64,000 bases of DNA from a virus (IMGVR_UViG_3300033049_000033:1-64000); one strand, 5' to 3'; shown: positions 14,900-56,204, counted from the stretch's first letter. Made by a program: numbers and translations. Notes: a model not told the origin generated them from the letters alone.

Positions 14900-14908
14900 T
14901 TTAATAAG

Positions 14909-15157
14909 ATGGAAGAAAGGTTAAACAGATTAACAGAGCAACGGGGTTCAATGAACAAACAAACAACAACCATAGAGATATTAGACTATATAGAAAATCT
15001 GTTAGAGATAGAGAAGGAAGATTTTAGACGAAAACAATTAAAAGCTGTGTCTGATGGAAATCAAGATTATCATGGTGCGATAACATGTGCAACAGCAAGG
15101 TCTGTTACTATGGGAATACTAAGTACAATAATGACTGACACTATTGATTGTAGGTAA
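14909..15157 (+). CDS. hypothetical protein
   Basis: 82 aa ORF between the endonuclease gene and the C-intein gene. Confidence 0.3.
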   Translation: MEERLNRLTEQRGSMNKQTTTIEILDYIENLLEIEKEDFRRKQLKAVSDGNQDYHGAITCATARSVTMGILSTIMTDTIDCR

Positions 15158-27498: not shown

Positions 27499-28209
27499 AT
27501 GGCGATTTCAGTATTTTTATCACACCAGCTAACATTTAGCTTTGAAGAGGACAAGTTTACGCAATGTTCAAAAACAGAAGCAGTGCGTTACCTGAAAGGT
27601 CTTTACTCTAATAAGACCAGATTTGAGGCAGACTTTTTAAGTGAGTTTGCACCACAAAAGATTTTTGACCCGATTAGAGAATTTATGCTAGAGTCTTGGG
27701 ACGATGCAACTAAATTCACCTATGAGGAAGCGTTTAAGCTTACAGACGAGACTTTCCAACGAATGGTTTTCACATCAGTCGATATTGCTGACATGATGGA
27801 ACACTTAGGAAAGGAAAAGGTAAAAACCGATGGTATACATGTCTCACGTAAAGTATTTGACCGAGATGGAGAATACGTTGAAGACAAAGAGTATGATAAC
27901 GTTTATGAAACCTACCGTATAAATGGTAGTGAGCTAGGACTGAGGACAGCCGTTTATGCAGTGAGATGCTGGTGTACCTCTACCGAGAACGAGCATTGGC
28001 TATGGATTGATGAGCAGTACGCTTCCGACCCACTTGCCGCTATTGCAAGCACGTTCCATATGCATGAAAATGTAATTCCACATATCACGGAATTAAAGAG
28101 ACAGGGTGATATTATGCTAGTTGAACTAGATAGTGATATCACTCCTGAAGGGAATTCAAGACCCTTAACTAAAGATGAGTACTTTGGTCTATTGACCTCT
28201 GAGACATAA
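27499..28209 (+). CDS. hypothetical protein
   Basis: 236 aa; no motif. Confidence 0.5.
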   Translation: MAISVFLSHQLTFSFEEDKFTQCSKTEAVRYLKGLYSNKTRFEADFLSEFAPQKIFDPIREFMLESWDDATKFTYEEAFKLTDETFQRMVFTSVDIADMMEHLGKEKVKTDGIHVSRKVFDRDGEYVEDKEYDNVYETYRINGSELGLRTAVYAVRCWCTSTENEHWLWIDEQYASDPLAAIASTFHMHENVIPHITELKRQGDIMLVELDSDITPEGNSRPLTKDEYFGLLTSET

Positions 28210-28236: not shown

Positions 28237-28473
28237 ATGAAAAACAAGCAAATTGTAATACTAGAGCCATCTACTAATACTCACTCTTTGGCAGCAGAGA
28301 GCGTAGAAGTAACTGACTTGGGCGGTGGAAACCTAAAACTTAAAGTTGAAGGTTCAGGCATCGTAACCCACGGTGAGCATGGTGTTGTGAGAACAGAAGC
28401 TCCTGACGTAATCAAATACGTTCAGCAAGAGTTGAACCCTATCACAAATGCGTTTCAAAACGCATACGACTAA
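28237..28473 (+). CDS. hypothetical small protein, probably highly expressed
   Basis: 78 aa; immediately followed by a strong intrinsic terminator. Confidence 0.45.
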   Translation: MKNKQIVILEPSTNTHSLAAESVEVTDLGGGNLKLKVEGSGIVTHGEHGVVRTEAPDVIKYVQQELNPITNAFQNAYD

Positions 28474-28497
28474 GGTCGTTAGGAGTATATACGAACA

Positions 28498-28532
28498 AAA
28501 CGCCATAGGATTTCCTATGGCGTTTTTTTTAC
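28498..28532 (+). terminator. rho-independent terminator
   Basis: AAACGCCATAGGA-loop-TCCTATGGCGTTT then TTTTTT. Confidence 0.8.
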
Positions 28533-28539
28533 ATGACAT

Positions 28540-28908
28540 ATGAAATTCCTAATAAAAACAACATATAAAACTTACGGAGCTAAAGACGTAACCCACCACA
28601 ATTTTAAAGGAGGTTGGTTATCTCTTACTAATAAGAGAATAATATCGTTAACTATAGGTTCGGACATTAATCATGTTCGTTGCTGTGGGAATATAATCAA
28701 AGAACTATATGTCCCTCCTCATCTTAAATCCATATGGGTAGATGTTCATCAGAACATAACCAATATTAAGGAGCTGATGGGTACCGATATTAGAATAGTC
28801 TACATTGACTTCACTAAACATGGTAGTGACGTATTTGGTACCACCATGTTAGAGATAGAATTATTAAGTAATCAACTATCACGAATTAGCGCTACACTTG
28901 CATCATAG
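28540..28908 (+). CDS. LRR_5/BspA-like repeat paralog family member 1
   Basis: I-x-E-L-x-V-P-x-x-L repeat and ITNIKEL terminal motif; first of a tandem array. Confidence 0.5.
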   Translation: MKFLIKTTYKTYGAKDVTHHNFKGGWLSLTNKRIISLTIGSDINHVRCCGNIIKELYVPPHLKSIWVDVHQNITNIKELMGTDIRIVYIDFTKHGSDVFGTTMLEIELLSNQLSRISATLAS

Positions 28909-28928
28909 CATTTCGATATTTTGTACCA

Positions 28929-29333
28929 ATGGCCAGAGTAATAAATAAAATCAATTATACGTGTAGGGTAATCGAAGAGACTGATAAGAATCTAGTTGAA
29001 CTTGAGATATCCGAAGGTGCTGAACAAATTTTCTGTGAGAATAATAAGCTAACAGAACTTATTGTTCCTGAAGGTGTTAAAGTAGTATTTTGTGGGGACA
29101 ATGAGTTGACTGAACTTATATTACCTAGCACTGTAACAGCCTTAGATGCTACAAACAATCCAAATCTTAAAAAGGTGACATTACCTGAAAGAATGATATG
29201 GGCTAATTTAGATACGAACACCGAAGTAATTAATCTTAAACAGGTGTCTAAGGACAAAGATATGGTTGTTAGATTCATACCACTTAGTAGTCGAGAAAAT
29301 TGGCGAGAAAGCACTAATATGTTTGTAAGATAA
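28929..29333 (+). CDS. LRR-like paralog family member 2
   Basis: LVELEISEGAEQIF / LTELIVPEGVKVVF / LTELILPSTVTAL repeats; TEVINLKQV motif. Confidence 0.55.
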   Translation: MARVINKINYTCRVIEETDKNLVELEISEGAEQIFCENNKLTELIVPEGVKVVFCGDNELTELILPSTVTALDATNNPNLKKVTLPERMIWANLDTNTEVINLKQVSKDKDMVVRFIPLSSRENWRESTNMFVR

Positions 29334-29887
29334 TGGAAAATAGACACAGAGTAATGGGTCAAATCAGTAAAAGTATATTAGGCTCTGCACTAAGTGTAGA
29401 CGGCATCACACATCCGATATACCCTACAAGTACTTTAGATATTAATGAAAGGCTAAAGGATGTATTCGTATCCAATTGGATTGATTACTCAAGTATGTGG
29501 GCTAATGATTGGGTTGATGTTATCATTTACCGCAACACTAAGGCTAAGATAGCTAAGTTTATTAATTCACCTACTTTAGAGAGAGTTGAATTCCCAGATA
29601 CTATTAAGATGGTTTTGTTGAATGGTGAGAATGTTAATAGAGTAGTGATGGCCGAAGGTGTTGAGTTCTTCTTTGCTAGAAAGTGTAAGAATTTGAAAGA
29701 GATATACTTGCCGAGGTCGATTAAGAAAGCTGTTCTTCCTTCTACCTGCACAGTTATTAATTTTGAGGAAGTAAGTGCCAACGTTAATATGGAGGTTGTT
29801 TATGATGCTAAGTATCTTATTGAAATAGATGAAATAAGAAATATTATGGCACAAATACTGAGAGATAATGTAGATATTAATGTTTGA
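29333..29887 (+). CDS. LRR-like paralog family member 3
   Basis: LERVEFPDTIKMVLL, LKEIYLPRSIKKAVLP repeats; CTVINFEEV motif; start overlaps previous stop. Confidence 0.55.
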   Translation: MENRHRVMGQISKSILGSALSVDGITHPIYPTSTLDINERLKDVFVSNWIDYSSMWANDWVDVIIYRNTKAKIAKFINSPTLERVEFPDTIKMVLLNGENVNRVVMAEGVEFFFARKCKNLKEIYLPRSIKKAVLPSTCTVINFEEVSANVNMEVVYDAKYLIEIDEIRNIMAQILRDNVDINV

Positions 29888-30275
29888 TGGTTATGTCGTC
29901 ACGACAGACGGTCAAATACAGGTATTAAAGTATAATCACCACAACGAGGGATGGGTGAACTTTAATAAGTTAATGATTAATATTAGACCATACCTTAAAC
30001 CAATAGTGGGTAGAGATGAATATGGTAGCGTATCATTAATATCGTTGGAGATAAAGGAAATTGTGTTTCCGTTGGCCGTTAGAAGTATTACGTTAGTCGG
30101 ATGTAAATTCGATAACGTAGAGTTATCCATTCCATTATATAGTGGGAGCACCGCAAGGATATTTAGATGTGATAATCTTAAGATTAGGAACATAATGCAT
30201 TGGGCGGCATCTGATGATGCTAGTCTAACATTTGGGATAGGTAACATTCCAACAGAAGGATTAGGGTTTGAGTGA
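29880..30275 (+). CDS. LRR-like paralog family member 4
   Basis: IKEIVFPLAVRSITLVGCKFDNVELSIP repeats. Confidence 0.5.
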   Translation: MFDGYVVTTDGQIQVLKYNHHNEGWVNFNKLMINIRPYLKPIVGRDEYGSVSLISLEIKEIVFPLAVRSITLVGCKFDNVELSIPLYSGSTARIFRCDNLKIRNIMHWAASDDASLTFGIGNIPTEGLGFE

Positions 30276-30714
30276 TATAGAACGTAAGATAGGGATAGCT
30301 AAGTATCGTGGTACTGATAAATATGACAGTATATTGTCCGAGGTATCAGTTGTATACTTGTATGATAATACAGAAGAGTTAATACTGTACGGTGACTACA
30401 TTAGGGAATTTAGACTTAAGTCGTTACACCCACTTAATTTACTATCCATATGTAACGCAACCAATTTAGAAAAATTTATCATTGGGGGGTTTGTTTTTGG
30501 AGGAACCCCCATGGCGACCACTATAAGTCCCATAACTGAATTATTGTTGCCACCTAACCTTCAAGAATTAGATATTCGTGCATTACACTTGAAGGAGGTG
30601 TATTTGCCAGATTCAATAACACTTGCTATAGTGAATAGTAAAACTTTTGTTGTAAATCAGCACGATTTTATCAGAAATAATAATAAAGTACTAAGATATG
30701 TCAAATTTGAATAA
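30268..30714 (+). CDS. LRR-like paralog family member 5
   Basis: ITELLLPPNLQELDI, LKEVYLPDSITLAIV repeats. Confidence 0.5.
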   Translation: MSDIERKIGIAKYRGTDKYDSILSEVSVVYLYDNTEELILYGDYIREFRLKSLHPLNLLSICNATNLEKFIIGGFVFGGTPMATTISPITELLLPPNLQELDIRALHLKEVYLPDSITLAIVNSKTFVVNQHDFIRNNNKVLRYVKFE

Positions 30715-30892
30715 TATACAGGAGTATGAACCATTAAATAAGGATTCATTTGATAGGTTCACGTCAACCTATTTAGATAACCAAGCCAAAGCAATGGAAA
30801 AGGCTTTATTATACGTTAGAAGGGCAGAAATTATGATAAATCACCACAATGAGACAGTTAATATTATAACCTTCTTATTCAAAAACCTATGA
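30698..30892 (+). CDS. hypothetical protein
   Basis: 64 aa ORF inside the array; no family motif. Confidence 0.35.
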   Translation: MSNLNNIQEYEPLNKDSFDRFTSTYLDNQAKAMEKALLYVRRAEIMINHHNETVNIITFLFKNL

Positions 30893-31167
30893 TAGAAAAT
30901 AAAGATATATTTAATCTCGATATGTATCAGGATAAACCCATTAGGTTTCTCCCACCTGCAACTATGATGTCTGGTCTTGGTGAGCATTTAGAGCATTTCG
31001 AACATGGTGTACCTCTTATGAACATGACAATAATAGACCACAGTATTTTACTACCACCTAAGCCAAATGGTGAGGCTTTTGAATTGGCTATAGATAGGAT
31101 AGGGATAATGTTCCGAACGCTGGCCGATAAGAAGTCTGGACTAACTTTTTTATTCGAAGATTTATGA
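30889..31167 (+). CDS. hypothetical protein
   Basis: 92 aa ORF inside the array. Confidence 0.4.
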   Translation: MIENKDIFNLDMYQDKPIRFLPPATMMSGLGEHLEHFEHGVPLMNMTIIDHSILLPPKPNGEAFELAIDRIGIMFRTLADKKSGLTFLFEDL

Positions 31168-31826
31168 GCATTATAAGACTGAATAGTTGGGGACAACAAA
31201 TAGCTTCGTATTGGCCACAGATACCTAATAACACTCTATTTGGTGAATATCATTACATCGGTATGAACGATAATTACCTAATAACACCTGAGAATAACGT
31301 TGAAATTGACGACCATGATGGCATCCCATTTATCAGAGTATCTGTTGAGCATCATGCAATGGATTACTTTGTACTGTATAATAATCCACTAAATGCTATA
31401 AAGATACTTAATGTGCGTGGCGACTTAATACAGAAGTTACTAATAGAAGACTCAGTACCTTACATAATTGTAAGAGCGCCTATGGTCACAGAACTAACCC
31501 TTCCTGACGGTATTATTGCATTGGTGATGCATAACATAGGATTTAAAGAGATAATGGTTCCTCAGAGCCTTAAATTCCTTGTGGTGCCACACGACATACA
31601 TATAATCAATTTAGAAGAACTGAAATATAGAGACGATGTAACCATTATCATTAATAACAAACAGAATGAGGTTAGAAGGATGCTAGACTCACCAACTCAT
31701 CAATTACACACCCAAATATTTAAAGATGAAAGAATTACTGACCCTCTTATGGAAATGCAGCCCTTTTCCAGCAATGATAGAACTCATATTATTGATGATG
31801 GACTTCCTACTTGGGAGGATGAGTGA
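31164..31826 (+). CDS. LRR-like paralog family member 6
   Basis: VTELTLPDGIIALVMHNIGFKEIMVPQSLKFLVVP; IHIINLEEL motif. Confidence 0.55.
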   Translation: MSIIRLNSWGQQIASYWPQIPNNTLFGEYHYIGMNDNYLITPENNVEIDDHDGIPFIRVSVEHHAMDYFVLYNNPLNAIKILNVRGDLIQKLLIEDSVPYIIVRAPMVTELTLPDGIIALVMHNIGFKEIMVPQSLKFLVVPHDIHIINLEELKYRDDVTIIINNKQNEVRRMLDSPTHQLHTQIFKDERITDPLMEMQPFSSNDRTHIIDDGLPTWEDE

Positions 31827-31942
31827 TGGTAGACCCATCGGCATCGTAAGTAGGGAAGGGTGGAAACGTATGGATGAAATGGATGATGCTGCTGAACGCA
31901 TATTCGAAATTGAGCGAGATAAATTAAATGGACTAAAATGAC

Positions 31943-31978
31943 TTGCATATGTCAAATATTTTACGTATCTTTGTGATA
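31943..31978 (+). promoter_or_regulatory. family-A promoter ACTTGCATATGTCAAATATTTTACGTATCTTTG
   Basis: TTG 31943-31945; TATCTTTG 31966-31973. Confidence 0.6.
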
Positions 31979-32232
31979 TGCACGTTTTAATTCTTCTATT
32001 CTTACTGGCGGCTGTACTAATATTTGGCACTATATGGTTGATATATAGTATGATACGTAGTAAAATTATGTTATTTCTGGGATATAAACAATATGAGTTG
32101 ACCAAAATTTTATCTTTTGGTGGCTTTAAAGTAGACTTTGTGTGGAAAAAGACTGATAATGAGGTACTTGCGATGTCTAGAAGATACGACATTGTAACTG
32201 AAATCAAACCTAACAACAGGAAAGTAAGATGA
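31978..32232 (+). CDS. small membrane protein
   Basis: 84 aa; N-terminal TM MHVLILLFLLAAVLIFGTIWLIY. Confidence 0.4.
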   Translation: MHVLILLFLLAAVLIFGTIWLIYSMIRSKIMLFLGYKQYELTKILSFGGFKVDFVWKKTDNEVLAMSRRYDIVTEIKPNNRKVR

Positions 32233-32296
32233 GTGGAGTATATTGTGGTGGAGGTGGAAAAGAGTTTATTAATAAAACTAAACATATCTGTATATC

Positions 32297-32746
32297 GTGA
32301 AATATGTAGTAGGACATTATATAGATTATGATGGTAACATAGAATACTTAGAGAATAATAAACGTTATATTCTCCCATCTAAGAAGTTACAAGAGATTTA
32401 TATCCCAGATGGCGCGATAAGTGTAGAAATATTAAGTGTTAGTTGTCAAAGTATTATACTACCTTCTTCAGTAATTAAATTAAACTTACATTGTGAGGAT
32501 ATTAATGAAGTAGTGTTACCTGTCAACCCAGAATTAGACTACTTCAGTTTGACTACAAAGACGAAGATTAAGAATCTAAATGATTTGGTAGGATTCAATG
32601 GCATAGTAGATATATGGACATTAAAACATGAGGATTATCCATATCGATTTAGGCCAAGTGTTAGTATTATACTCATTGAAGCAGACACTGAATATGAATT
32701 AGAAGGATATAAAGAAGATGCAAAACAAGAACTTCAAGAACGATAA
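32297..32746 (+). CDS. LRR-like paralog family member 7
   Basis: LQEIYIPDGAISVEIL, IILPSSVIKLNL, INEVVLPVNPEL; TKIKNLNDL motif. Confidence 0.55.
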   Translation: MKYVVGHYIDYDGNIEYLENNKRYILPSKKLQEIYIPDGAISVEILSVSCQSIILPSSVIKLNLHCEDINEVVLPVNPELDYFSLTTKTKIKNLNDLVGFNGIVDIWTLKHEDYPYRFRPSVSIILIEADTEYELEGYKEDAKQELQER

Positions 32747-33125
32747 ACGTAAAGAACCTAACGGTTGGTATGTAACTAAATCTGGTAAGGAAGAACCATT
32801 ACTAGAGAGGTTTCCACAAGAGTTAGAAATTAAAGAATTACACATCGCTGAAGGTGTGTATCGGGTGGTGATGAATAATATTCCAGATATGGAACTATTT
32901 CTACCTAACAGTCTAAGTAGTATTGCACTACATAATTGTGGTATTAAAGAAGTAACCCTACCAAAGGATACTTATTATGTTACAATCCCTACAAATACCA
33001 CTATAACTAATCTAAATGAAGTAGCCAATAATAAGAACATTTCTATTAAGATATATAAAAATGTAGATGAGCCAACTCTCCGACAAGAGAGTAGAGTCGT
33101 AGAAGTATTTCACATAGCAATATAA
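32718..33125 (+). CDS. LRR-like paralog family member 8
   Basis: IKELHIAEGVYRVVM, MELFLPNSLSSIAL, IKEVTLPKDTYYVTIP; TTITNLNEV motif. Confidence 0.55.
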   Translation: MQNKNFKNDKRKEPNGWYVTKSGKEEPLLERFPQELEIKELHIAEGVYRVVMNNIPDMELFLPNSLSSIALHNCGIKEVTLPKDTYYVTIPTNTTITNLNEVANNKNISIKIYKNVDEPTLRQESRVVEVFHIAI

Positions 33126-33535
33126 TGGACGGATATATTACATTAATGGACGGTAGCATAAGACCAATACAAAAATCTGGTCACTATGATATTATTTGTA
33201 ACGAGTTAACTAATGAGGTTGAGGTAAGACATGAAAGACTGTCTTACATGTCATCTCATATGACAAATACAGTTAAGGTCGTTACAAATGGAGTTAACAT
33301 AGCTGAATTGGTATTACCCAAAGCTACTGAAGCTTTAGAAATATACGATTCGGTAGACATAGAGACCACGGGAATATTTGGCCAGAGAACTAAGCGGTAT
33401 GGGAGTAAAATAAATAGCCCAATGACCTTACCAAAGGCCATCAAATACGTGCAAATACCATTAGGTATCAAGATAACTAATCTAGGGGATTTCAAAGGTA
33501 ATAAAAAAGTAGATATACGATTTAGAATAAGATGA
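33125..33535 (+). CDS. LRR-like paralog family member 9
   Basis: IAELVLPKATEALEI; IKITNLGDF motif. Confidence 0.5.
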   Translation: MDGYITLMDGSIRPIQKSGHYDIICNELTNEVEVRHERLSYMSSHMTNTVKVVTNGVNIAELVLPKATEALEIYDSVDIETTGIFGQRTKRYGSKINSPMTLPKAIKYVQIPLGIKITNLGDFKGNKKVDIRFRIR

Positions 33536-34038
33536 ACGATGAAAGCATAGTATCACGAGACCTCCTTAAAACAATGGAGAGTCCAAGGGGTCGACAAATA
33601 CGACACACTATTAACATTCCAGTAGGTGAATTTGATTATGATGAGATAGTAATAACAGATGGTGTAACAGACCTTAATGTATTCTATGCAGATGATGTTA
33701 AATTAACCCTCCCAGAGAGCGCATTCAATATCAATACTGAATATTCTAAGATAACTGAGTTAAACCTCTCTACTCACTTGTATAGAGGTAAGATACGCTC
33801 TGACACTAAGATAGTTAACGAGGATGATATACCTGAAATCACTAAGGAGCAATCTAGTAATGGCTGGCGCCCAACCGCAGACCTAGAATTCGTCACGGAA
33901 TCAAGCTTAGATATGGTACGATTACAAGGATGTTGGATATGTATGGGTGAAGTCACCAAAGAAATAGTCCATATATGTGCTAAAACCCCAGAACATCATA
34001 GTTTTGAGGTGGGAGAACGATTAATAATATTAAAATAA
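33532..34038 (+). CDS. LRR-like paralog family member 10 with C-terminal CxxC...HIC zinc-ribbon-like tail
   Basis: VKLTLPESAFNINTEYSKITELNL; C-terminal CWICMGEVTKEIVHIC. Confidence 0.5.
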   Translation: MNDESIVSRDLLKTMESPRGRQIRHTINIPVGEFDYDEIVITDGVTDLNVFYADDVKLTLPESAFNINTEYSKITELNLSTHLYRGKIRSDTKIVNEDDIPEITKEQSSNGWRPTADLEFVTESSLDMVRLQGCWICMGEVTKEIVHICAKTPEHHSFEVGERLIILK

Positions 34039-34048
34039 AGTTTATACA

Positions 34049-34528
34049 ATGAAAAATACGCTAGTGACATCTGAAACAGCTATGATGGCCAAAGACAAGG
34101 GCTTTGATTGGAATTGTCCTAACTATTCTAACGAGTATGGTGCGTTAAAGAATATTGATAATTACTTAAACGTATTCTGGTCGTGTAATTCTAATGTACA
34201 ATATAATTGTCGATTCTATAACATCAAAAATAAGGACAAACTGATTAAGATGATGATAATACCTAGCCAATCTATTCTACAGCAATGGCTTAGAGAGGAA
34301 TGTAACATCCATATATCAGTACATAAGAACGTCTACAAGAATTCCGACCATGATGATTTTGTAACCGAGTTTACGGCAACCATTAATGACTTTGATAAGA
34401 CACATATTGATTATAATGAGGGGCTGAGGTTCTCTACCAAAATACCTGAGCATGCACATGCTAGCGATAAATCATCATATGAAGATGCACTTGAAGAAGC
34501 ACTAACTATAGGATTGGGAATGATATGA
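34049..34528 (+). CDS. hypothetical protein (paralog of the next ORF)
   Basis: 159 aa; shares MAKDKGF / ILQQWLREECNIHISVHKN with the 34525 ORF. Confidence 0.45.
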   Translation: MKNTLVTSETAMMAKDKGFDWNCPNYSNEYGALKNIDNYLNVFWSCNSNVQYNCRFYNIKNKDKLIKMMIIPSQSILQQWLREECNIHISVHKNVYKNSDHDDFVTEFTATINDFDKTHIDYNEGLRFSTKIPEHAHASDKSSYEDALEEALTIGLGMI

Positions 34529-34932
34529 TATTGAAATACGAAACATGTTTATTAGCCAAAGAGAAAGGTTATCCACAAGGAGAGACCTACGATTTCTGGA
34601 TGGCCGATGCTAAAACCATAACGGATAAGCATTATCGAAGCTTCTTAGGTCTTAATGACGAAGAATTTGAAGCACTGTTAGCTGCTCCGACACAAGACCG
34701 TATTGAGAGGTGGCTTAGGGATGAACAATCTATATACCTTAAAGCCCACCCAATCAACACAGGTCAATTGGTTCTTAATTGGGAATTTGTAATATTCTTT
34801 TTAAAGCAACCATTAGAAGGGACTGATGGATTTCATAATAAAATGTCTCTACACGTAGAACCTTACTTCTGGAATTCATACGAAGAAGCTACAGAAGCTG
34901 GCATACAAGAAGCATTGAGACAAATCAAATGA
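34525..34932 (+). CDS. hypothetical protein (paralog of the previous ORF)
   Basis: 135 aa; LAKEKGY / IERWLRDEQSIYLKAHPIN. Confidence 0.45.
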   Translation: MILKYETCLLAKEKGYPQGETYDFWMADAKTITDKHYRSFLGLNDEEFEALLAAPTQDRIERWLRDEQSIYLKAHPINTGQLVLNWEFVIFFLKQPLEGTDGFHNKMSLHVEPYFWNSYEEATEAGIQEALRQIK

Positions 34933-35429
34933 GTAGTAGACTCGACATTAATAGAAGAATGTCCAAATATTCAGCAGATAATGTCGTATATAACACACTT
35001 GACCTATTACCACAAGAACTTGACCAGTTCAGTGACCTTATTATAGATGAAGGGGTTAACACTATTTTTATATACAATTTCTCCCACCCCCAACTGACAT
35101 TACCTAATAGTGCGACAATTATAGTTCTATCCCATTCTCCTATTCCTAACTTGACCTTACCTGACAGTAGCCATAGATTTATTAGAACATTTCTGATAAA
35201 TAATAAGACTAATGTAAGTAATTTACATGAATACATTAATAAGACTCATAAAAATACCGACATAAATTATTGTAATAGTCAAGAGGATATTAGTTGTATA
35301 GTTTGTGATAGACAACTTAAGAGTGAGACTTATACAAATAAAGACGTACATATTTGTATGAGTAAGCGCTTCACTGACGGAACTGATGCCTATAGGCATC
35401 AATTTAAGAAGTTATTTTTTCTTAAATAG
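34929..35429 (+). CDS. LRR-like paralog family member 11 with C-terminal CxxC...HIC tail
   Basis: LTLPNSATIIVLSHSPIPNLTLPDSSHRFI; TNVSNLHEY; CIVCDRQLKSETYTNKDVHIC. Confidence 0.5.
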   Translation: MSSRLDINRRMSKYSADNVVYNTLDLLPQELDQFSDLIIDEGVNTIFIYNFSHPQLTLPNSATIIVLSHSPIPNLTLPDSSHRFIRTFLINNKTNVSNLHEYINKTHKNTDINYCNSQEDISCIVCDRQLKSETYTNKDVHICMSKRFTDGTDAYRHQFKKLFFLK

Positions 35430-35430
35430 A

Positions 35431-35467
35431 TTTGCATATGTCAAATCTTTTTCGTATCTTTGTACTA
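35431..35467 (+). promoter_or_regulatory. family-A promoter TTTGCATATGTCAAATCTTTTTCGTATCTTTG
   Basis: TTTG 35431-35434; TATCTTTG 35455-35462. Confidence 0.6.
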
Positions 35468-35543
35468 TAAATCAACGGGAGGACACTATTCAAATTTATA
35501 CGACCAAGAACACGAGAGGTACGAACCACTTAAACCAATAATT

Positions 35544-35954
35544 ATGGAAAACAGTAAAACATATGGTAGTTGGAAAGTAACTACTGAAGGAGATGTCGAA
35601 GGTAAAAGTATAAAATATCTTGGAGATTTTATTGGTAATCTAGAAGATATAGCTTTTCATTTAGCTAATAAGTGCTTCTACTCTCTTAGATTCACAAAGC
35701 TTGAGGAAATTAATGAGTATGAGATTACCAATAAAGATGTGAATATTAGCTTCGACAATCTTTATTCTACTGAAGACCTCTTACCTGCTGCTAAAGAATT
35801 GTTCTCAGACAACCCAACAGTGTTGGTCGAGAAAAGTAACTTCTATAATAGTGTTAGGTTAAGAACCACCAAAAAGGTTACACCAGACAAACGTGCAGAG
35901 GCGTTGGCTAAACTATCAACAGAAGACAAGAAAGTCTTAGGTTTACTAAAGTAA
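35544..35954 (+). CDS. hypothetical protein
   Basis: 136 aa from MENSKTYGSW; the upstream in-frame ATG at 35460 lies inside the promoter. Confidence 0.45.
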   Translation: MENSKTYGSWKVTTEGDVEGKSIKYLGDFIGNLEDIAFHLANKCFYSLRFTKLEEINEYEITNKDVNISFDNLYSTEDLLPAAKELFSDNPTVLVEKSNFYNSVRLRTTKKVTPDKRAEALAKLSTEDKKVLGLLK

Positions 35955-35956
35955 TA

Positions 35957-36217
35957 GTGGGACAACCTATGCTTCCGCTTGTAGGTAAACCAGTCGTTGG
36001 TAAGAAGTACCACATGACTTGGGGATTGAGTAAAGGTGTGGTTGGTAAGTGCTACCAAGTTGATGAAGACGATAAAACGGCACTACTAAGAACACCAAGC
36101 ACAGCCAAACCATTTAAGTATCCTGTGCCGTGGAGCCAATTACTCCATACTAGAGCACAACAAGATAGAATTGAACAAGGGCTAGACCCTTACGAAGGAG
36201 ATAAACCACTAACGTAA
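35957..36217 (+). CDS. hypothetical protein
   Basis: 86 aa ORF. Confidence 0.4.
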   Translation: MGQPMLPLVGKPVVGKKYHMTWGLSKGVVGKCYQVDEDDKTALLRTPSTAKPFKYPVPWSQLLHTRAQQDRIEQGLDPYEGDKPLT

Positions 36218-36219
36218 CC

Positions 36220-36417
36220 ATGAGTTATAAAGAAGTACGAATGAAACAAGAGATTAAGGATAGGAGATACATTGCCAAGTTAGAAGCGGCAGTCAAGAAA
36301 ATTCCAAACATATATATGGAAGGTGCAATGGATAAGGATTGGGGATACACTGGTGATGACCTAGACATACGACAAGATAAGTACCAGAAGAAAGTTGACA
36401 AATTAATACGAAACTGA
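36220..36417 (+). CDS. hypothetical protein
   Basis: 65 aa ORF. Confidence 0.35.
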   Translation: MSYKEVRMKQEIKDRRYIAKLEAAVKKIPNIYMEGAMDKDWGYTGDDLDIRQDKYQKKVDKLIRN

Positions 36418-36481
36418 TGGAGAAACGCACCGCACAGGTAATAATGTTACCCACAAACAAGACCACCCTGTATGTGACTAC

Positions 36482-37006
36482 ATGGGCTTGCACTATAATG
36501 CTTTAGATAATGACTATAAAAACTATCAAAAGCAACATCTATACTTTACAGTTGAAGAGGATATTGTTGAGGGAGATTGGTACTACGTGTCAGGAGGTGT
36601 AGGGCAATCAGTTGGTGTATACCAAGCAGAGGCTAATCCAGTTAACAACGACTGGCGACATAAAATTGTTGCAACCACTGATTTACTTTGGGTACATGCA
36701 ACAGGAATGGTTACAATACCCCGACCTAAAGTTAGATTCGTAATGGACTTCTGTAATAAGCCAGTTAAAACGGTGGAAATTGAATATACTTCGGCTGGTT
36801 ATGCTAATGCCATGCACATGGATTCTGGAGTAGCACCTGACGTATCTAAGGTAAAGGTGAATATTAATAATGAAATTACTATCCTAGACCCCACCCTGTA
36901 CTCTAAAGAAGAATTAATCGATGCAATCTATTCATATTGGAATGAACTACATGGAGACGGACAGCATAACCCAAAGCTAATCAACTGGATTAAAAACACA
37001 TTATAA
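36482..37006 (+). CDS. hypothetical protein
   Basis: 174 aa ORF. Confidence 0.45.
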   Translation: MGLHYNALDNDYKNYQKQHLYFTVEEDIVEGDWYYVSGGVGQSVGVYQAEANPVNNDWRHKIVATTDLLWVHATGMVTIPRPKVRFVMDFCNKPVKTVEIEYTSAGYANAMHMDSGVAPDVSKVKVNINNEITILDPTLYSKEELIDAIYSYWNELHGDGQHNPKLINWIKNTL

Positions 37007-37257
37007 TGAAGAGTGAGAAAATGCAAGCAGTTATCGATATGGCACTCATTATGGGGCTGAGGTTCAATGAGCCTGATAATTATCCTGACATGCTTGAGAG
37101 AGAGATTGTACTCTTCAATGGCGCCAACACACAACGTATACTAATAGACACTACGCAAGAATGGGACGAAATCTACAAAGTATTAGGTGAGGAACTCATA
37201 AAGTTTGGTGAGATACAAAAAGCTCAAGAAATTAATATCGCATTAAACCCTTGGTGA
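37006..37257 (+). CDS. hypothetical protein
   Basis: 83 aa; ATGA-coupled. Confidence 0.4.
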   Translation: MKSEKMQAVIDMALIMGLRFNEPDNYPDMLEREIVLFNGANTQRILIDTTQEWDEIYKVLGEELIKFGEIQKAQEINIALNPW

Positions 37258-37904
37258 TGAGAGAAAAAGTCAATATACAATTACTTCCGACAACAAAATA
37301 TCCAGCAATTGCTCAAAGTAGTATTGATGTGGGTACCCTATATGGATGGGTGGATAGCGCAATCAGAACTCCACATAAATTAGTCCACATGTATTTCACA
37401 ACCGATGAACGGGTGACGAAAGATGATGTGTGGGTTATAACAGATACCCAAGAGGTACTTAATCTTCAAGATTTTGTGAGTACCACGGTAAGATTTAGAG
37501 AGAACTGTAAGAAAATCGTAGCAACTACTGATAGGTCGTTGACTGTTGACTTAGGTCATCTATGTGTAGACCATCTACCACAACCTACGGATATGTTTAT
37601 CGAAGAGTATTGTAAGAACCCTACTGATGAGGTAATGGTTACCTTTGAAGCGAAACCTAAGCCTGATGGATGGCGAGAGGGTTTCCTTAAATATGGTATT
37701 GAGCATGATGAAATACAGGTAAAGGTTAATGAACTTAACTACATCGATATTTCTTTTATTAGAGAGAATTTTACCATAGAAGAGGTTCAAGGTCTAGTCG
37801 CCAAATTAGAGGGAATACCTATTGACTCACATGGAGAGCCTCTTTCAGGTATTCCCGAAATATGGAAAAATACCATAGATATGTGGTGCGCACCATTTAA
37901 ATAG
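37251..37904 (+). CDS. hypothetical protein
   Basis: 217 aa ORF. Confidence 0.45.
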   Translation: MVMREKVNIQLLPTTKYPAIAQSSIDVGTLYGWVDSAIRTPHKLVHMYFTTDERVTKDDVWVITDTQEVLNLQDFVSTTVRFRENCKKIVATTDRSLTVDLGHLCVDHLPQPTDMFIEEYCKNPTDEVMVTFEAKPKPDGWREGFLKYGIEHDEIQVKVNELNYIDISFIRENFTIEEVQGLVAKLEGIPIDSHGEPLSGIPEIWKNTIDMWCAPFK

Positions 37905-37907
37905 AAG

Positions 37908-38240
37908 ATGATGAACAAACCAGATAGATGGGTAGTTGTAAAGATTACCAAGAAAGGTACAGAGGACGTGTATAAGGTCTTTGCAACATGGATGGGTGGT
38001 TACCTTGGTGGTGACGCTTGGAGGATGAATAGTGGTATCGTAAGCGTTGTAGACGCTGACATCACACTAACCTTTATTGGACACTCTGGCTCCGAATATG
38101 AATGCCCCAAGGGAAGTTACGGATTCAGCGCCTATACTCAAGGAGCACTTGAAAGTCTAATAAGTCGTGTAGAAGAAGATGGCTATGTAATGACCATTAT
38201 GGATAAAGATTCTGACTTTCTTAACATGGTATTCGTATAA
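37908..38240 (+). CDS. hypothetical protein
   Basis: 110 aa ORF. Confidence 0.4.
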   Translation: MMNKPDRWVVVKITKKGTEDVYKVFATWMGGYLGGDAWRMNSGIVSVVDADITLTFIGHSGSEYECPKGSYGFSAYTQGALESLISRVEEDGYVMTIMDKDSDFLNMVFV

Positions 38241-38275
38241 GTCAATTATATAGATGATATTAACGCAGATATAAT

Positions 38276-38503
38276 ATGAAAATGTCAGAACAAGAATATA
38301 CAAAAGACCCATTCAATATGTTTTATGTTGTTTCGATGATAGAAGATGACTTATATAAGGATGAGACAGCGCTGATAGCTGTAGAGTATAAAGCAGAGAC
38401 AGCTAACGGAACCAACGCTTATTATAATGGTGGCGTAGAGATGTTGAAGGATAACATCGCTAAGAAAAAGGAACTAATTAAACAATACACACCTAAAGGA
38501 TAA
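38276..38503 (+). CDS. hypothetical protein
   Basis: 75 aa ORF. Confidence 0.4.
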   Translation: MKMSEQEYTKDPFNMFYVVSMIEDDLYKDETALIAVEYKAETANGTNAYYNGGVEMLKDNIAKKKELIKQYTPKG

Positions 38504-38757
38504 TGGACAACAAGGATAATCTAGAACTATTAGAGGGGCTTATGTTACGAGCCTTCAACGCTGGTCGTAAGTATGAACAAGGCGAACAAGTATCTTGGGA
38601 CACATATAATAAGCTTACAGGCTTCCAAAAACCCAATACAGAACTAACATTTGAACAATGGTATAATGAGGGTCAAGCATATCCAGAAGCATGTGATAGC
38701 TTCCAATCATCAGCTAAGGATGATGTAAAGGACGAAGATATGACAGGATATGAGTAA
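38503..38757 (+). CDS. hypothetical protein
   Basis: 84 aa ORF. Confidence 0.4.
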   Translation: MDNKDNLELLEGLMLRAFNAGRKYEQGEQVSWDTYNKLTGFQKPNTELTFEQWYNEGQAYPEACDSFQSSAKDDVKDEDMTGYE

Positions 38758-38774
38758 AGTTAAAGTATAATAAT

Positions 38775-39212
38775 ATGAGAGAAGATGAATTAGAGCTAAG
38801 ACTTAAGAAATCAAACGGGTACCTTAAGCAAGTTATCGATAGTGGTAATTTTGGTAAAAAATCCACGGGTATACTGCGAAAAGCAATAGTCGATAATAAG
38901 GTAGCGTTGGACTTGGTAGATGTTATTATACCAGAGCCAGTAGAGGAAAAGGTAGTGGAAATTAAATCACCACCGAATAAGATGGTGGAGTTATTAGATA
39001 GGCATCAATCTGGTGACCTAACGTTAGAGGAATACGTTGAACAAGTAAACTTACTAGAGATACCAAAAGCTCAAGAAGCGATACAACAATGTTTAGAAGA
39101 CCCTAACGGATGGCTTAATGATAATTACCCATACTTCAATATGGTGGATAGAAAACAATGGTTCAAAGCTATGACAGCTTATGGTACATACCTTACTAAC
39201 CTATCACGATAA
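38775..39212 (+). CDS. hypothetical protein
   Basis: 145 aa ORF. Confidence 0.45.
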   Translation: MREDELELRLKKSNGYLKQVIDSGNFGKKSTGILRKAIVDNKVALDLVDVIIPEPVEEKVVEIKSPPNKMVELLDRHQSGDLTLEEYVEQVNLLEIPKAQEAIQQCLEDPNGWLNDNYPYFNMVDRKQWFKAMTAYGTYLTNLSR

Positions 39213-39387
39213 TATGGCTTGTTATACACCATATTGTTGGGGAGATTGTGATGAATGTATAGCTGAGAAGAAAGCATACGAAGAGTCCATTGCCGAATGT
39301 CCATATAGGAAAGAGTGTCATTGGGTAGTAGTACACACCAAACAAGATAGATGTACACACTGTAACGAAACTTTTGATTATCCATGA
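39181..39387 (+). CDS. Cys-rich small protein
   Basis: 68 aa with 9 Cys (CYTPYCWGDCDEC...CPYRKEC...CTHC). Confidence 0.4.
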   Translation: MVHTLLTYHDNMACYTPYCWGDCDECIAEKKAYEESIAECPYRKECHWVVVHTKQDRCTHCNETFDYP

Positions 39388-39797
39388 ACCAAGTACGTGA
39401 CGATGAGTATGGATTTATAGAGACTATGAATGGAGAAGTAGTTTCTCTCAGAGGAGTCACCAAAATACTGCCGAAAGATGACTGCCCATACCCTCATTCC
39501 AAATACCTCAATAGTAGTTGGAGTATATTAGGAGCCACCGATTTAGTATATACTAATGACTTAGGTAATAATACGTTGGTGATTGCCGTAGGAGCCTTTA
39601 GTAAAATACATTTAAAGAGACTGCTGGTTCCAAAAAGAGTAGCCAATCTCCTGATATATAGTGGAGTAACAATTGATGAGCCTGTGTATATAGGTGATAA
39701 GTTAAAAGACATAACAGCCCCAATAGAAATCCAATTCGTCAATCTTGAAGATAAGTTTAATGTAGATGAAGAAGAATTATCTATACTATTTGTATAA
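39384..39797 (+). CDS. hypothetical protein
   Basis: 137 aa ORF. Confidence 0.4.
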   Translation: MNQVRDDEYGFIETMNGEVVSLRGVTKILPKDDCPYPHSKYLNSSWSILGATDLVYTNDLGNNTLVIAVGAFSKIHLKRLLVPKRVANLLIYSGVTIDEPVYIGDKLKDITAPIEIQFVNLEDKFNVDEEELSILFV

Positions 39798-39865
39798 GTC
39801 AAAATAAATCAGTATCTTTGTAACACATCAAAACTAAGATAAATAGAAAGAAACGATAAACTGTA

Positions 39866-40150
39866 ATGGAAGACCCAATCAAATTCAGAGCATGGGATAT
39901 TCGAGCCAAAGCAATGGTTTATGATGCATGTATATTAACAGGAGTAAGAAATCTTGTTACGGTAAACGAAGAACACTTTAATTCGCCATTTTCATTCTTT
40001 GACGGATGCATTTGGATGCAGTACACTGGTTATAATGACATCGTTGATGCTGAGGTATACGAATCTGATGTGGTAAGGGTGAAGGATGCTAGGGATAACG
40101 AGGGGTACACTATGTCCCACCATCGAATAATTCGTGGTATGACGAGCTAA
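39866..40150 (+). CDS. hypothetical protein
   Basis: 94 aa; preceded by a TATCTTTG promoter at about 39805-39830. Confidence 0.4.
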   Translation: MEDPIKFRAWDIRAKAMVYDACILTGVRNLVTVNEEHFNSPFSFFDGCIWMQYTGYNDIVDAEVYESDVVRVKDARDNEGYTMSHHRIIRGMTS

Positions 40151-40300
40151 TGGATGAAAGTATTATGACCGCATGTGGTAGAGACCTTAACAAGTGGAAA
40201 GGAATACTATCACCTGTATGGGAGAATACGTATGGCGATTTCTTAAGCAATTGGATGCTAATGGATAGATGTAAGAGTTGTGAAAAGAAAGCCTTGAAGA

Positions 40301-40582
40301 ATGTTTGAAGATAGAATGCTAATATATAGCAAACAAGAGTACATTGTTAATACACTCACAATTAGGCCAGAAGAGGTACCCTCAATCACAGAAATACAAA
40401 GCATCAACGCTACCGACATAACAATCTTTAATCTAGATAAATCAGATATAGTAATATCTGGCACATTTAAGCTACTTAACTTAGATAATCTACACAATAC
40501 AGTAACAATAAACAATATAGAAAAATACCTCCATAGAGACAATATAGATATAACACTATCAGCCACAATAGATAATGGTTGA
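40301..40582 (+). CDS. LRR-like paralog family member 12 (second cluster)
   Basis: ITIFNLDKSDIVISGTFKLLNLDNLHNTVTINNIEKYL. Confidence 0.45.
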   Translation: MFEDRMLIYSKQEYIVNTLTIRPEEVPSITEIQSINATDITIFNLDKSDIVISGTFKLLNLDNLHNTVTINNIEKYLHRDNIDITLSATIDNG

Positions 40583-41072
40583 TAACATAAGAACAGTAAC
40601 GTACCTATCTGCCTACACAACTATTAATACAAGAACATCTCTAACACTACCAACAGAAGATGCTCTCAAAATTAAACATATAAAGATATTGAATGGTGGA
40701 ACATCTTTACTCCTCCTCAACGAATTGACGGCACATATAGATACGCCAGATACATTGGATATTGTAGAGGCCAAACATCTTAGCAAACTATCAATAAACT
40801 TGCCAATAACAATAATAGAAGCTAATATTAATAACAACGTAACAATACCCAACATAGAAGAATTGATACCACACGTTCATAAACTACGAAGACAACAAGA
40901 AATGCAAGGGCTTTGGTCAACAGTGGGAATAAGATGGTACCCAGATATGGGAAGAGAGAGCTTTTGCTGGCACTGTTCTATAGATACAGTAATACCAGAA
41001 GGCTATTCACATATATGTGTTATAGGGACAACTGATAATGTAACGCCATTATTTACGGTACATGCCGACTAA
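40575..41072 (+). CDS. LRR-like paralog family member 13 with CxxC...HIC tail
   Basis: VTIPNIEELIP; CWHCSIDTVIPEGYSHIC. Confidence 0.5.
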   Translation: MVDNIRTVTYLSAYTTINTRTSLTLPTEDALKIKHIKILNGGTSLLLLNELTAHIDTPDTLDIVEAKHLSKLSINLPITIIEANINNNVTIPNIEELIPHVHKLRRQQEMQGLWSTVGIRWYPDMGRESFCWHCSIDTVIPEGYSHICVIGTTDNVTPLFTVHAD

Positions 41073-41109
41073 CCCAACAGTATAAAAGTATAAAACTGAC
41101 CAAACAATA

Positions 41110-41583
41110 ATGGAGATAAAACCAAAAGCCGAACCGATAATAGCCAAGACCGATAAAGTCTGCTATAAGATACTATATAAGATTAACCCACTTGAGCGTG
41201 ATGCCGAAAGTCTACTGAAATGCCATGAGGACGAACTAATATATAAAACCAATATCATGATGCCTAACATAGAGCTTGTCTCCGTAAGAGAAAAGTTTTC
41301 TAATGGGTTTAAATGGTTTGTAGATATGGGATACCACTCTAGAACTAAAGTTAACTCCGAAGAAAGAGTGGTTAGACTAGACTGCAATAATTGTTGGTAT
41401 AAATGCATAATACCCAAAGGTGCTAAATACTATGAAGGGATGGATGAGAATAATAGAGAGTCTTACTCATCTGATAGTATCATGGTAATAGAGCTAATTG
41501 AAACTGAAAGCTTTTATGAGAAGATTAGGATGAAAAAGGAATATAGTAAGATGCAGAAGAATGATAGAAAGTCTGGAAGATAA
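41110..41583 (+). CDS. possible family member with CNNC..KC cluster
   Basis: MMPNIELVSV; CNNCWYKCIIP. Confidence 0.35.
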   Translation: MEIKPKAEPIIAKTDKVCYKILYKINPLERDAESLLKCHEDELIYKTNIMMPNIELVSVREKFSNGFKWFVDMGYHSRTKVNSEERVVRLDCNNCWYKCIIPKGAKYYEGMDENNRESYSSDSIMVIELIETESFYEKIRMKKEYSKMQKNDRKSGR

Positions 41584-41594
41584 TCCCCACTATA

Positions 41595-42059
41595 ATGTTT
41601 GAAGATATGATAAATCACACAGGTAGGTATGGTTGGGTCAGACATACGTTAGATATAAGTGAACAACAACTAAAGGCCGTTGGAGAATTAGAGATACTCG
41701 ATGGTGATTTAGTGGTACTGAAAAACTTCGACAACACTAAAGTAATACTACCACACATTACCAATATGGGGCTGGACGCAAAGGCATCTAATATATCAGA
41801 GATAGAGTTTACCCCTACGGAAGGATTTATACTTCTTGACATAGGGACAAACATAGTCAATATAGAAGAGCTGAAAAATAAATCATGCGTTTTTATCGAG
41901 TACTCCTCTAAGTCTGACGTAAGAATCTGTTCATGCTGCTCAAAGCTCCTTAATGAGGGGACGGTACATATCTGCATGCAGAAGAAATTCGACTCCGTAG
42001 AGGAAGCATTTGTAAACAAGGACATGTCTTTCTTCACTTGTAAGCCACGTTCTCTTTAA
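41595..42059 (+). CDS. LRR-like paralog family member 14 with CxxC...HIC tail
   Basis: TNIVNIEEL; CSCCSKLLNEGTVHICMQKKF. Confidence 0.5.
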   Translation: MFEDMINHTGRYGWVRHTLDISEQQLKAVGELEILDGDLVVLKNFDNTKVILPHITNMGLDAKASNISEIEFTPTEGFILLDIGTNIVNIEELKNKSCVFIEYSSKSDVRICSCCSKLLNEGTVHICMQKKFDSVEEAFVNKDMSFFTCKPRSL

Positions 42060-42268: not shown

Positions 42269-42286
42269 TGTACACATTTGTGTACA
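42269..42286. repeat. 18-bp palindrome TGTACACA-TT-TGTGTACA (copy 1)
   Basis: perfect inverted repeat; also at 42746-42763, 43765-43782 and 56180-56197, degenerate at 43167-43183. Confidence 0.8.
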
Positions 42287-42336: not shown

Positions 42337-42744
42337 ATGAAAAAATCAATAATAATAGTGTTCGTAGTGTTATGTATCGTAGTGTCATCTTCAGTTGATA
42401 GTCACTCAGTTGTCAATGATAGGTGGGAGGCACCAAGTAGTGCCGATACACTTAAAAATCCTTATACTAATAGTGCTGAAACATTTATCGTTGGTAAAAA
42501 ATTATTTAAACAAATGTGCGCCATATGTCATGGTAATAGAGGTAGAGGTAATGGAATCGGTGGAATCGGTCTACCGACCAAGCCGACAAATCTCACATCT
42601 AAGGTTATTCAAGGGCAAACCGATGGTGCCATTTTTTGGAAAATATCTGAGGGGAGGATTCCAATTTCACCAATGGCACCATATAAAAGCATATTAAAAG
42701 AAGACCAAAGGTGGGGGTTGGTTAATTATATTAGGACATTATAG
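42337..42744 (+). CDS. c-type cytochrome (class I, c551/c552-like) with signal peptide
   Basis: MKKSIIIVFVVLCIVVSSSVDS signal peptide; CAICH heme-binding CXXCH; distal Met in ISPMAPYK; start at 42337 because the upstream MYTFVY is translation of the palindrome. Confidence 0.8.
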   Translation: MKKSIIIVFVVLCIVVSSSVDSHSVVNDRWEAPSSADTLKNPYTNSAETFIVGKKLFKQMCAICHGNRGRGNGIGGIGLPTKPTNLTSKVIQGQTDGAIFWKISEGRIPISPMAPYKSILKEDQRWGLVNYIRTL

Positions 42745-42777
42745 ATGTACACATTTGTGTACATAGGGATAATTATA

Positions 42778-43164
42778 ATGTCACCTTCGGTGTTTCCTAT
42801 ACTCTTGTGGTGTGGGCTTATATTCATGGTATTGTTTATAGTACAAGCTATGAATATTCAGGTATATGGCAGAATGAGAGGAAATCAATACCTCATTGAT
42901 AATTTGTCTGAACTTAGTGCGGAAATCCGAATGGAGGGTAATAAGAATTGTTTGAGTTATCACTCTGAGCATATAATGTTCGTTAATGAGACTAAGACTT
43001 TGTTTGGGGATTACGTTATATTTGGACAAGCACCCAGTGAACAATATAGTGGCATTGTCTGGCGTGGTAGTACATTGCATTATTTTTTGAAGCGCAAGTT
43101 TGTGGAGCAACGAATACCCACTAAATCCTATGGATATGACAGTAGCATAGTAGAGCCTATGTAG
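42778..43164 (+). CDS. hypothetical membrane-anchored protein
   Basis: 128 aa from MSPSVFPILLWCGLIFMVLFIV; follows palindrome copy 2. Confidence 0.45.
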   Translation: MSPSVFPILLWCGLIFMVLFIVQAMNIQVYGRMRGNQYLIDNLSELSAEIRMEGNKNCLSYHSEHIMFVNETKTLFGDYVIFGQAPSEQYSGIVWRGSTLHYFLKRKFVEQRIPTKSYGYDSSIVEPM

Positions 43165-43180
43165 TATGTACACATTTGTG

Positions 43181-56176: not shown

Positions 56177-56204
56177 TTATGTACACAAATGTGTACATAA
56201 GAAC

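Follow-up and report, generated by a model that had tools for sequence, protein, structure and literature searches.

A tandem family of small leucine-rich-repeat proteins in the accessory region of a large marine phage

In the current study, we describe a tandem array of small paralogous genes in a 64-kb stretch of viral DNA (IMGVR_UViG_3300033049_000033, positions 1–64000; hereafter, the window), where small open reading frames (ORFs) on the + strand are densely packed between 28.5 and 42.1 kb. The family comprises 12 certain members, one truncated member, and up to two possible degenerate members, which agrees with the 11–15 proposed in the original prediction made from the sequence. Ten of the certain members lie at 28540–35429 and two at 40575–42059, and several non-family ORFs are interleaved with them (30698, 30889, 31978, 34049, and 34525). 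The members are predicted to adopt a leucine-rich-repeat (LRR) fold, and four of them end in a cysteine- and histidine-containing tail.

Membership of the array

The family was delineated by comparing all 141 non-overlapping + strand ORFs of the window with one another by BLASTP with composition correction. Ten ORFs were linked by 16 matches (E 1.6e-7 to 9e-3), and just three further paralog pairs were found in the whole window. A hidden Markov model (HMM) built from these ten recruited 40575–41072 (E 3.6e-7) and 28540–28908 (E 9.6e-7), after which the family was closed. In leave-one-out searches, all 12 members were recovered by a profile of the other 11 (20.9–69.8 bits, E 2e-6 to 2e-21), whereas no shuffle of a left-out protein (200 each) exceeded 10.3 bits and none of the 129 non-members exceeded 11.4 bits. 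Profile–profile comparison with hhalign assigned a probability of at least 98.7% to the 12 members versus at most 3.4% to all others, and when all six frames of the 64 kb were scanned with a core HMM of 60 residues, the same 12 members and no hidden family fragments were returned. The core alignment displays both features by which the family had initially been recognized, namely the β-strand repeats (L-x-L-P) and the distal motif T-x-I-x-N-L-x-E, in which the Asn is invariant.

Because the genome is AT-rich (35% G+C) and holds many small ORFs rich in Leu, Ile, and Asn, and because the paralogs share only 15–32% pairwise identity, the similarity could have been a compositional artefact. This explanation is refuted by the composition-corrected BLASTP matches, the hhalign probabilities, the six-frame scan, and the wide separation of leave-one-out scores from those of shuffled and non-member sequences; the same fold also emerges from two independent structure models, leaving the artefact with practically no probability. 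Members still align after composition correction, and the proposal of a genuine family of diverged paralogs is thus borne out.

The margins of the family were also defined. One ORF that had been counted as a member, 41110–41583, was rejected, as its HMM E value is 4–7, it belongs to phrog_13450, and its CNNC...C pattern lacks HIC. Two ORFs inside the array, 39384–39797 and 29880–30275, are possible degenerate members only: they are always the next-best scorers, with scores that overlap those of shuffled sequences. Outside the window, the family is known only from two other marine metagenome phages, one from TARA Oceans (loci L001 and L008; the TARA phage) and one represented by a 1.4-kb contig (L017; the third phage). 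The parts of the array are as follows (lengths in amino acids, aa; bits are leave-one-out scores; percentages next to a locus are ortholog identities).

28540–28908, + strand: family member, 122 aa; 21.6 bits; hhalign 98.7%; without the zinc-like tail and without an ortholog in the TARA phage
28929–29333, + strand: family member, 134 aa; 52.6 bits; ortholog in L001 (54%); the most canonical LRR repeats (LTELIVPEGV / LTELILPSTV / LKKVTLPERM)
29333–29887, + strand: family member, 184 aa; 34.1 bits; ortholog P0005 in L001 (52%)
29880–30275, + strand: possible degenerate member, 131 aa; HMM E 0.02–0.03; hhalign 1.8%; individually not significant, among the top three non-members by rank
30268–30714, + strand: family member, 148 aa, TTG start; 27.7 bits; hhalign 99.1%
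30698–31167, + strand: two interleaved non-member ORFs, 64 and 92 aa; HMM E ~1–2
31164–31826, + strand: family member, 220 aa; N- and C-terminal extensions modelled with low confidence
31978–32232, + strand: small membrane ORF, 84 aa, non-member; maximum Kyte–Doolittle hydrophobicity 2.95
32297–32746, + strand: family member, 149 aa, GTG start; 43.3 bits; ortholog in L017 (35%)
32718–33125, + strand: family member, 135 aa; 69.8 bits; ortholog P0006 in L017 (49%); vestigial H-I-A where tailed members have H-I-C
33125–33535, + strand: family member, 136 aa; 29.1 bits; orthologs in L017 (27%) and L001 (25%); one repeat carries an 18-residue insertion
33532–34038, + strand: family member, 168 aa, tail CWIC-x9-HIC; 26.0 bits; ortholog in L001 (51%)
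34049–34932, + strand: interleaved ORF pair from another paralog family (phrog_12005), 159 and 135 aa
34929–35429, + strand: family member, 166 aa, tail CIVC-x14-HIC
39384–39797, + strand: possible degenerate member, 137 aa; HMM E 0.004–0.008; hhalign 3.0%; carries LKRLLVPKRV ... QFVNLEDKF; leave-one-out score overlaps the best shuffles
40301–40582, + strand: truncated member, 93 aa, lacking the C-terminal third; matches the N-terminal part of L001 18460–18954 (45% identity over 67 aa, E 4e-16)
40575–41072, + strand: family member, 165 aa, tail CWHC-x11-HIC; 20.9 bits
41110–41583, + strand: non-member, unrelated phage ORF (phrog_13450, E 9e-10)
41595–42059, + strand: family member, 154 aa, tail CSCC-x9-HIC; 28.7 bits; last gene before a 240-nt gap, then a promoter at 42302

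The counterpart of the truncated member in the TARA phage, L001 18460–18954, is a full-length protein of 164 aa that matches the family HMM and carries both TEVLNIEEL and CGIC-x9-HIC. Two further paralog pairs occur in the same region of the window, 34049/34525 (phrog_12005) and 36482/37251 (phrog_15656; 36482–37904), and the TARA phage holds at least two copies of each; duplication thus characterizes this part of the genome in general.

Fold and C-terminal tail of the proteins

The AlphaFold models superpose on solved LRR proteins and not on other folds, so that each family protein is predicted to be a minimal LRR solenoid, as originally proposed. These are among the shortest LRR solenoids encountered in this analysis, some with an apparent zinc cap. 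The repeat unit, L-x-L-P-x-x-V-x-x-L, spans about 20 residues (19–21) and occurs about three to four times per protein; the earlier repeats have a Pro after the strand and no Asn ladder, and the last turn carries the invariant Asn. Neither a signal peptide nor a hydrophobic or membrane segment was found in any family member, and most members are acidic; the lack of hydrophobic segments indicates soluble cytoplasmic proteins.

An LRR_5/BspA-like character had been claimed for the family, and this affinity holds at the profile level but not as formal LRR_5 membership. The best Pfam score, obtained for 28929, is 13.1 bits to LRR_5 (PF13306; E 0.089), well short of the gathering cutoff of 27.7 bits; in an hmmscan of 10 members, no other matched LRR_5 and none reached any Pfam threshold, and no meaningful match to family members was found in PHROGs, NCBIfam, or PADLOC. 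The family profile does match the Bacteroides LRR structures PDB 4fdw (E 4.4e-6) and 4fd0 (E 2.4e-5). An exhaustive profile search of 1.84 billion representatives yielded 20,631 proteins, the top matches being proteins of 1,000–6,000 aa that align in 10–26 separate stretches at profile positions ~33–91; four of five large matches checked score 581–1,465 bits on Pfam LRR_5, and the fifth (P0114) scores 47 bits, also above the cutoff. Direct alignment of the family to LRR_5 segments by hhalign gave a probability of 86.6% (E 4.5e-6) over only 29 columns. Of the full LRR_5 unit (consensus L-x-x-I-x-I-P-x-x-V-x-x-I-G-x-x-A-F-x-x-C), the phage repeat retains only one half, as L-T-E-L-x-L-P-x-x-V-x-x-L, the G-x-x-A-F-x-x-C half being absent, and on these sequence comparisons the repeats are best described as a shortened derivative of the BspA/LRR_5 type.

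A C-terminal pattern, C-x2-C-x9-14-H-I-C, is present in 33532, 34929, 40575, and 41595, with spacers of 9, 14, 11, and 9 residues, respectively, and its four ligand positions are invariant though these members are only 25–29% identical. The zinc-like tail assigned to five members in the original prediction thus stands for four, 41110 being without HIC, and the spacer range is 9–14 rather than 8–12 residues. The tail recurs in three related-phage proteins, as CIYC-x9-HIC in the 33532 ortholog of L001, CGIC-x9-HIC in L001 18460–18954, and CGTC-x9-HIC in a fragment on the contig of the third phage, so that the ligands are invariant across seven sequences of 20–50% identity. Tailed members form one clade in a simple neighbor-joining tree (without bootstrap), and tail-less members keep remnants such as H-I-A or H-I-S at the HIC position. 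Judging from the conserved arrangement of its ligands, the CCHC motif is a probable zinc-binding site. It probably also stabilizes the C-terminal end of the short solenoid.

The same invariance, together with the general tendency of small zinc modules to bind DNA or RNA, would also suit a nucleic-acid binder or regulator, in which the CCHC motif of the tailed subfamily, perhaps of the whole family, is the functional part and the LRR only a scaffold. We consider this quite improbable, since the cysteines are absent from eight of the 12 members, in which the remainder of the fold is nevertheless preserved, three of the four tailed members are acidic (isoelectric points of 4.8, 5.1, and 5.7, with 34929 neutral at 7.0), and no match to a Pfam zinc-finger family was obtained. 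A capping role for the motif is preferred in what follows.

Transcription, relatives, and genomic setting

Transcription of the region appears to be driven by promoters of the form TTG-N17-21-TAnnTTTG, the promoter type of Bacteroidota, which has 28 + strand matches in the window versus 3.6 expected (sites span 1835–63731). Class A promoters (TTGCATATGTCAAAT...TATCTTTG) extend up to ~44 kb and class B promoters (TTGGTAGTGTGGATT...TAGATTTG) occur from 46 kb onward; the two may represent two temporal classes. Four units are delimited by class A or A-like sites at 27439, 31943, 35432, 39790, and 42302, with a strong intrinsic terminator directly ahead of the first member:

28497–28533, + strand: intrinsic-terminator-like hairpin, 13-bp stem then a T run; separates the gene pair 27499/28237 from the first member
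27.5–31.8 kb: unit 1, five certain members
31943–31973, + strand: class A promoter TTG-N20-TATCTTTG, 5 nt before the ATG of 31978
32.0–35.4 kb: unit 2, five members
35432–35462, + strand: class A promoter, starts the unit at 35.4–39.8 kb
35.5–39.8 kb: unit 3, mostly unrelated phage ORFs
39790–39820, + strand: class A-like promoter, starts the last unit
39.9–42.1 kb: unit 4, two members and the truncated member

These promoter-delimited units, along with the terminator, rule out the single operon that had been proposed for the whole region. The break noted at 31.9 kb, with its promoter and small membrane ORF, is confirmed by the class A promoter at 31943 and ORF 31978–32232. Some promoters lie just 5 nt upstream of an ATG, and those of units 2 and 3 fall in a 46-nt repeat (at 31934 and 35423) with 85% identity. 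The tight packing with overlapping starts and stops (−1, −4, −8, −17, and −29 nt in the array) is also real, though region-wide rather than family-specific, as such overlaps are equally common among the region's non-family genes. No Shine-Dalgarno sequences were seen upstream of starts. The terminator hairpin at 28497–28533 is shared by the TARA phage, where a class A promoter comes next and the ortholog of 28929 after it.

The family has a very narrow known distribution and was not found in cultured phages. When 5.8 billion proteins were searched for homologs by word index, the window's own proteins and two orthologs were the only ones recovered, and the small proteins among the best 150 of the 20,631 exhaustive-search matches were likewise the window's own. 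No match was obtained in 50,697 phage records (megablast of the region; tblastn of one member), an IMG/VR scan with one family member revealed no relatives, and the 635-kb uncultured phage LR745206, which has only two genes in common with the window, contains no family member. In the TARA phage, the flanking genes are 65–95% identical to those of the window, and five members are present as opposed to 12–15; core genes of close relatives are about 80% identical. The third phage carries orthologs of 32297, 32718, and 33125 in the same order, preceded by the end of a zinc-tailed gene.

In the neighbor-joining tree, the partner of each of six members is a cross-phage ortholog and not a paralog, and paralogs show no similarity at the DNA level, indicating that the duplications are old and predate the split of these phages. 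Recent duplication, such as a gene accordion, is ruled out on the same grounds. Diversification driven by a diversity-generating type of retroelement was likewise rejected, as no DNA repeats occur near members except the promoters and one 31-nt motif match; no template/variable repeat pair was found near members, although a search aimed at reverse transcriptase was not made. An apparent pseudogene-like split of the 134-aa member in TARA locus L002 (3375–3388) proved to be a scaffold gap of Ns and not a frameshift.

The family had been described as rapidly diversified, a claim that does not hold for the duplications themselves and is retained only for relative rate and copy number. Median ortholog identity is 51% for the family versus 69% for neighboring genes (one-sided Mann-Whitney p = 0.012, n = 5 and 20), which, together with the two- to three-fold difference in copy number between the window and the TARA phage, suggests faster turnover than that of the neighbors. 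Cross-phage ortholog pairs are ~50% identical, and synonymous sites are therefore probably saturated; the remaining copies are 99.7–100% identical.

The upstream edge of the variable region is marked by the gene pair 27499–28209 (236 aa) and 28237–28473 (78 aa), which is conserved at 41–95% identity in no fewer than 20 contigs of related phages (among them loci L006, L009, L011, L013, L016, and L098–L108). In sixteen more distant relatives, this pair is present without a family member nearby, and in the close relative L007, the site is occupied by an HNH endonuclease and an IS605-type TnpB.

Such variability, with only five copies in one close relative, none in others, and mobile elements at the site in one of them, would fit a reading of the array as evolutionary debris, that is, old duplicates under weak or no selection that have no copy-specific function; the low identity between paralogs, the truncation of 40301, and the degenerate look of two ORFs point the same way. 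We give this reading only an outside chance. All 12 reading frames are intact, and unconstrained ORFs of that age would not stay open; furthermore, orthologs remain recognizable and syntenic at 27–54% identity in three phages, and motif residues and zinc ligands are invariant. As judged from the six members with cross-phage orthologs, the conserved order 32297-32718-33125 at 27–49% identity, and the invariant ligands, each copy has been maintained in its own right across great evolutionary distances. Orthologs also agree at several columns, notably in the first strand, where paralogs differ from one another; this pattern, drawn from five pairs, is suggestive of a fixed partner for each paralog.

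The family belongs to the accessory, non-structural portion of the genome of a large marine phage, with related contigs coming from TARA Oceans and other marine metagenomes. No structural gene was recognized in the window, and the label "early region" given to the locus is overstated, its basis being only this absence and the promoter type. Besides the family, the window encodes a sigma-70-type factor, Sir2, an ATP-dependent DNA ligase, a Band_7 protein, and a peptide deformylase; a GIY-YIG homing endonuclease adjoins the Sir2 gene. At least two sigma factors are present, one at 2283–3182 and one just upstream of the window, in a stretch (contig Ga0310979_100293, L110 1–4341) that also encodes an IF3 homolog, a NUDIX hydrolase, and a class II tRNA-synthetase-like protein.

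12995–16127: apparently fractured RNA ligase with intein parts, three ORFs

The first of these ORFs (12995–13843) combines an RNA_lig_T4_1 N-terminal part with a Hint/intein N-part, the second (13958–14899) is a free-standing DUF7487/Vsr-like endonuclease, and the third (15144–16127) begins with an intein C-terminal splicing motif; the whole looks like a split intein with an endonuclease gene between its halves.

Downstream of the array, an 18-nt palindrome, TGTACACATTTGTGTACA, occurs five times (42269–42286, 42746–42763, 43167–43184, 43765–43782, and 56180–56197), amounting to 9 strand matches versus 0.2 expected. It brackets three cassettes, which encode a secreted cytochrome c-like protein (42337–42744, CxxCH), a membrane ORF (139 aa, 42745–43164), and an HNH endonuclease (43181–43783, minus strand), and it may serve as a terminator or as a site of recombination or homing. 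The "MYTFVY" starts listed among the predicted ORFs are spurious and stem from this palindrome. Among cellular sequences, the closest homologs of the cytochrome c gene come almost exclusively from Bacteroidota and allied FCB-group phyla (Ignavibacteriota and Chlorobiota), with Bacteroidota in the large majority (45–58% identity). Given the promoter type (TTG-N19-TAnnTTTG), the absent Shine-Dalgarno sequences, and this Bacteroidota-type cytochrome c gene, the host is probably a member of Bacteroidota.

Possible roles and comparison with known systems

LRR solenoids are protein-binding scaffolds, and the best structural matches of the family are the target-recognition domains of bacterial effectors; on these grounds, we propose that each paralog could serve as a separate protein-binding module with its own partner during infection. 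The partner would most likely be a host protein, allowing takeover of the host or neutralization of its defences, and the CCHC element would cap and stabilize the short solenoid. Old tandem duplications would have been followed by differential retention, loss, or expansion among related phages. This combination of a distinct and most probably host-derived partner for each paralog with a CCHC-capped solenoid is the reading we favor, at slightly less than even confidence. A more specific anti-defence version, along the lines of the original prediction, in which the repertoire neutralizes or decoys different host immune sensors or effectors and thereby decides which Bacteroidota strains can be infected, is plausible for an LRR scaffold and compatible with the data, but appears doubtful.

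Several observations weigh against the binder proposal. No model of a defence or anti-defence system matched, with a single chance-level hit in PADLOC (E 0.0046) and none in NCBIfam or PHROGs. The lower ortholog identity of the family could reflect relaxed constraint rather than an arms race, and other small ORFs in the region are equally diverged (34–44%). The CxxC segment of the model has low confidence (predicted local distance difference test, pLDDT, ~60). No recognizable promoter lies between the strong terminator at 28497–28533 and the first sub-array, whose expression would therefore need read-through or an undetected promoter.

Since LRR scaffolds bind any protein partner, the mini-LRRs might alternatively act on phage proteins, as assembly chaperones or adaptors or as virion-associated or ejected internal proteins; their closest sequence relatives, the cellular BspA-type LRR_5 proteins, are mostly surface or adhesion proteins, which is in keeping with such a role. 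However, the genes lie among small non-structural ORFs near those for a sigma factor, a ligase, Sir2, and deformylase, in a window where no structural gene was recognized; the proteins have no signal peptides; and copy number varies between relatives whose core genes are ~80% identical, which would be unusual for assembly factors. We thus regard a phage partner as unlikely, and a panel of host-directed binders remains our preferred, if tentative, proposal.

If the more specific, anti-defence version is true, the repertoire would mirror, on the virus side, the LRR-based recognition practised by host immune receptors, and the zinc-capped minimal LRR would be a new, compact binder scaffold. Paralogs that bind host defence or housekeeping proteins would be natural probes for the little-studied cell biology and immunity of marine Bacteroidota, and they would provide a compact scaffold for use in binder engineering. 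If the genes are instead relics, the array would still document well an old gene family that expands and shrinks at a variable site of phage genomes.

Among known systems, the BspA/TpLRR proteins of the LRR_5 type are represented by Bacteroides ovatus BACOVA_01565 (PDB 4fdw) and the 143-residue BACCAP_00569 (PDB 4oju). Their repeats span 23–25 residues, compared with ~20 residues in the phage family, in which half of the unit is missing. Unlike BspA-type proteins, the phage proteins have only three to four repeats and no signal peptide, surface anchor, or sorting domain, and the terminal T-x-I-x-N-L-x-E turn and the CCHC tail are specific to them. By structure, the closest systems are the LRRs of type III effectors (IpaH1.4, IpaH9.8, SspH1, SlrP, and YopM) and internalins, with which no sequence relationship is detectable; in contrast to the effectors, the phage proteins have no NEL ubiquitin-ligase domain, no secretion signal, far fewer repeats, and a bacterial host. 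The tail resembles LRRCT caps in that a Cys element follows the last repeat directly, at the exposed end of the solenoid. LRRCT caps contain extracellular disulfides, whereas CxxC...HxC in a cytoplasmic phage protein would suggest metal binding.

By genome biology, the closest parallels are the repeat-protein families of eukaryotic viruses, such as FNIP/IP22 in mimivirus and Cafeteria roenbergensis virus (CroV; e.g., CroV588), poxvirus ankyrin proteins, and the multigene families (MGFs) of African swine fever virus (ASFV), although host domain, repeat type, and protein size all differ from those of the phage family. Literature searches produced no report of phage LRR families or of an equivalent phage repeat-protein multigene array, and no significant match was obtained in a viral structure library. 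Large eukaryotic viruses are typified by tandem families of repeat-protein binders, and these families are linked to host range. The array described here, not catalogued before in phages, is a clear phage multigene family on an LRR scaffold, and it shares with viral accessory multigene families the combination of tandem paralogs, variable number (12–15 vs. 5 vs. none), and conserved flanks.

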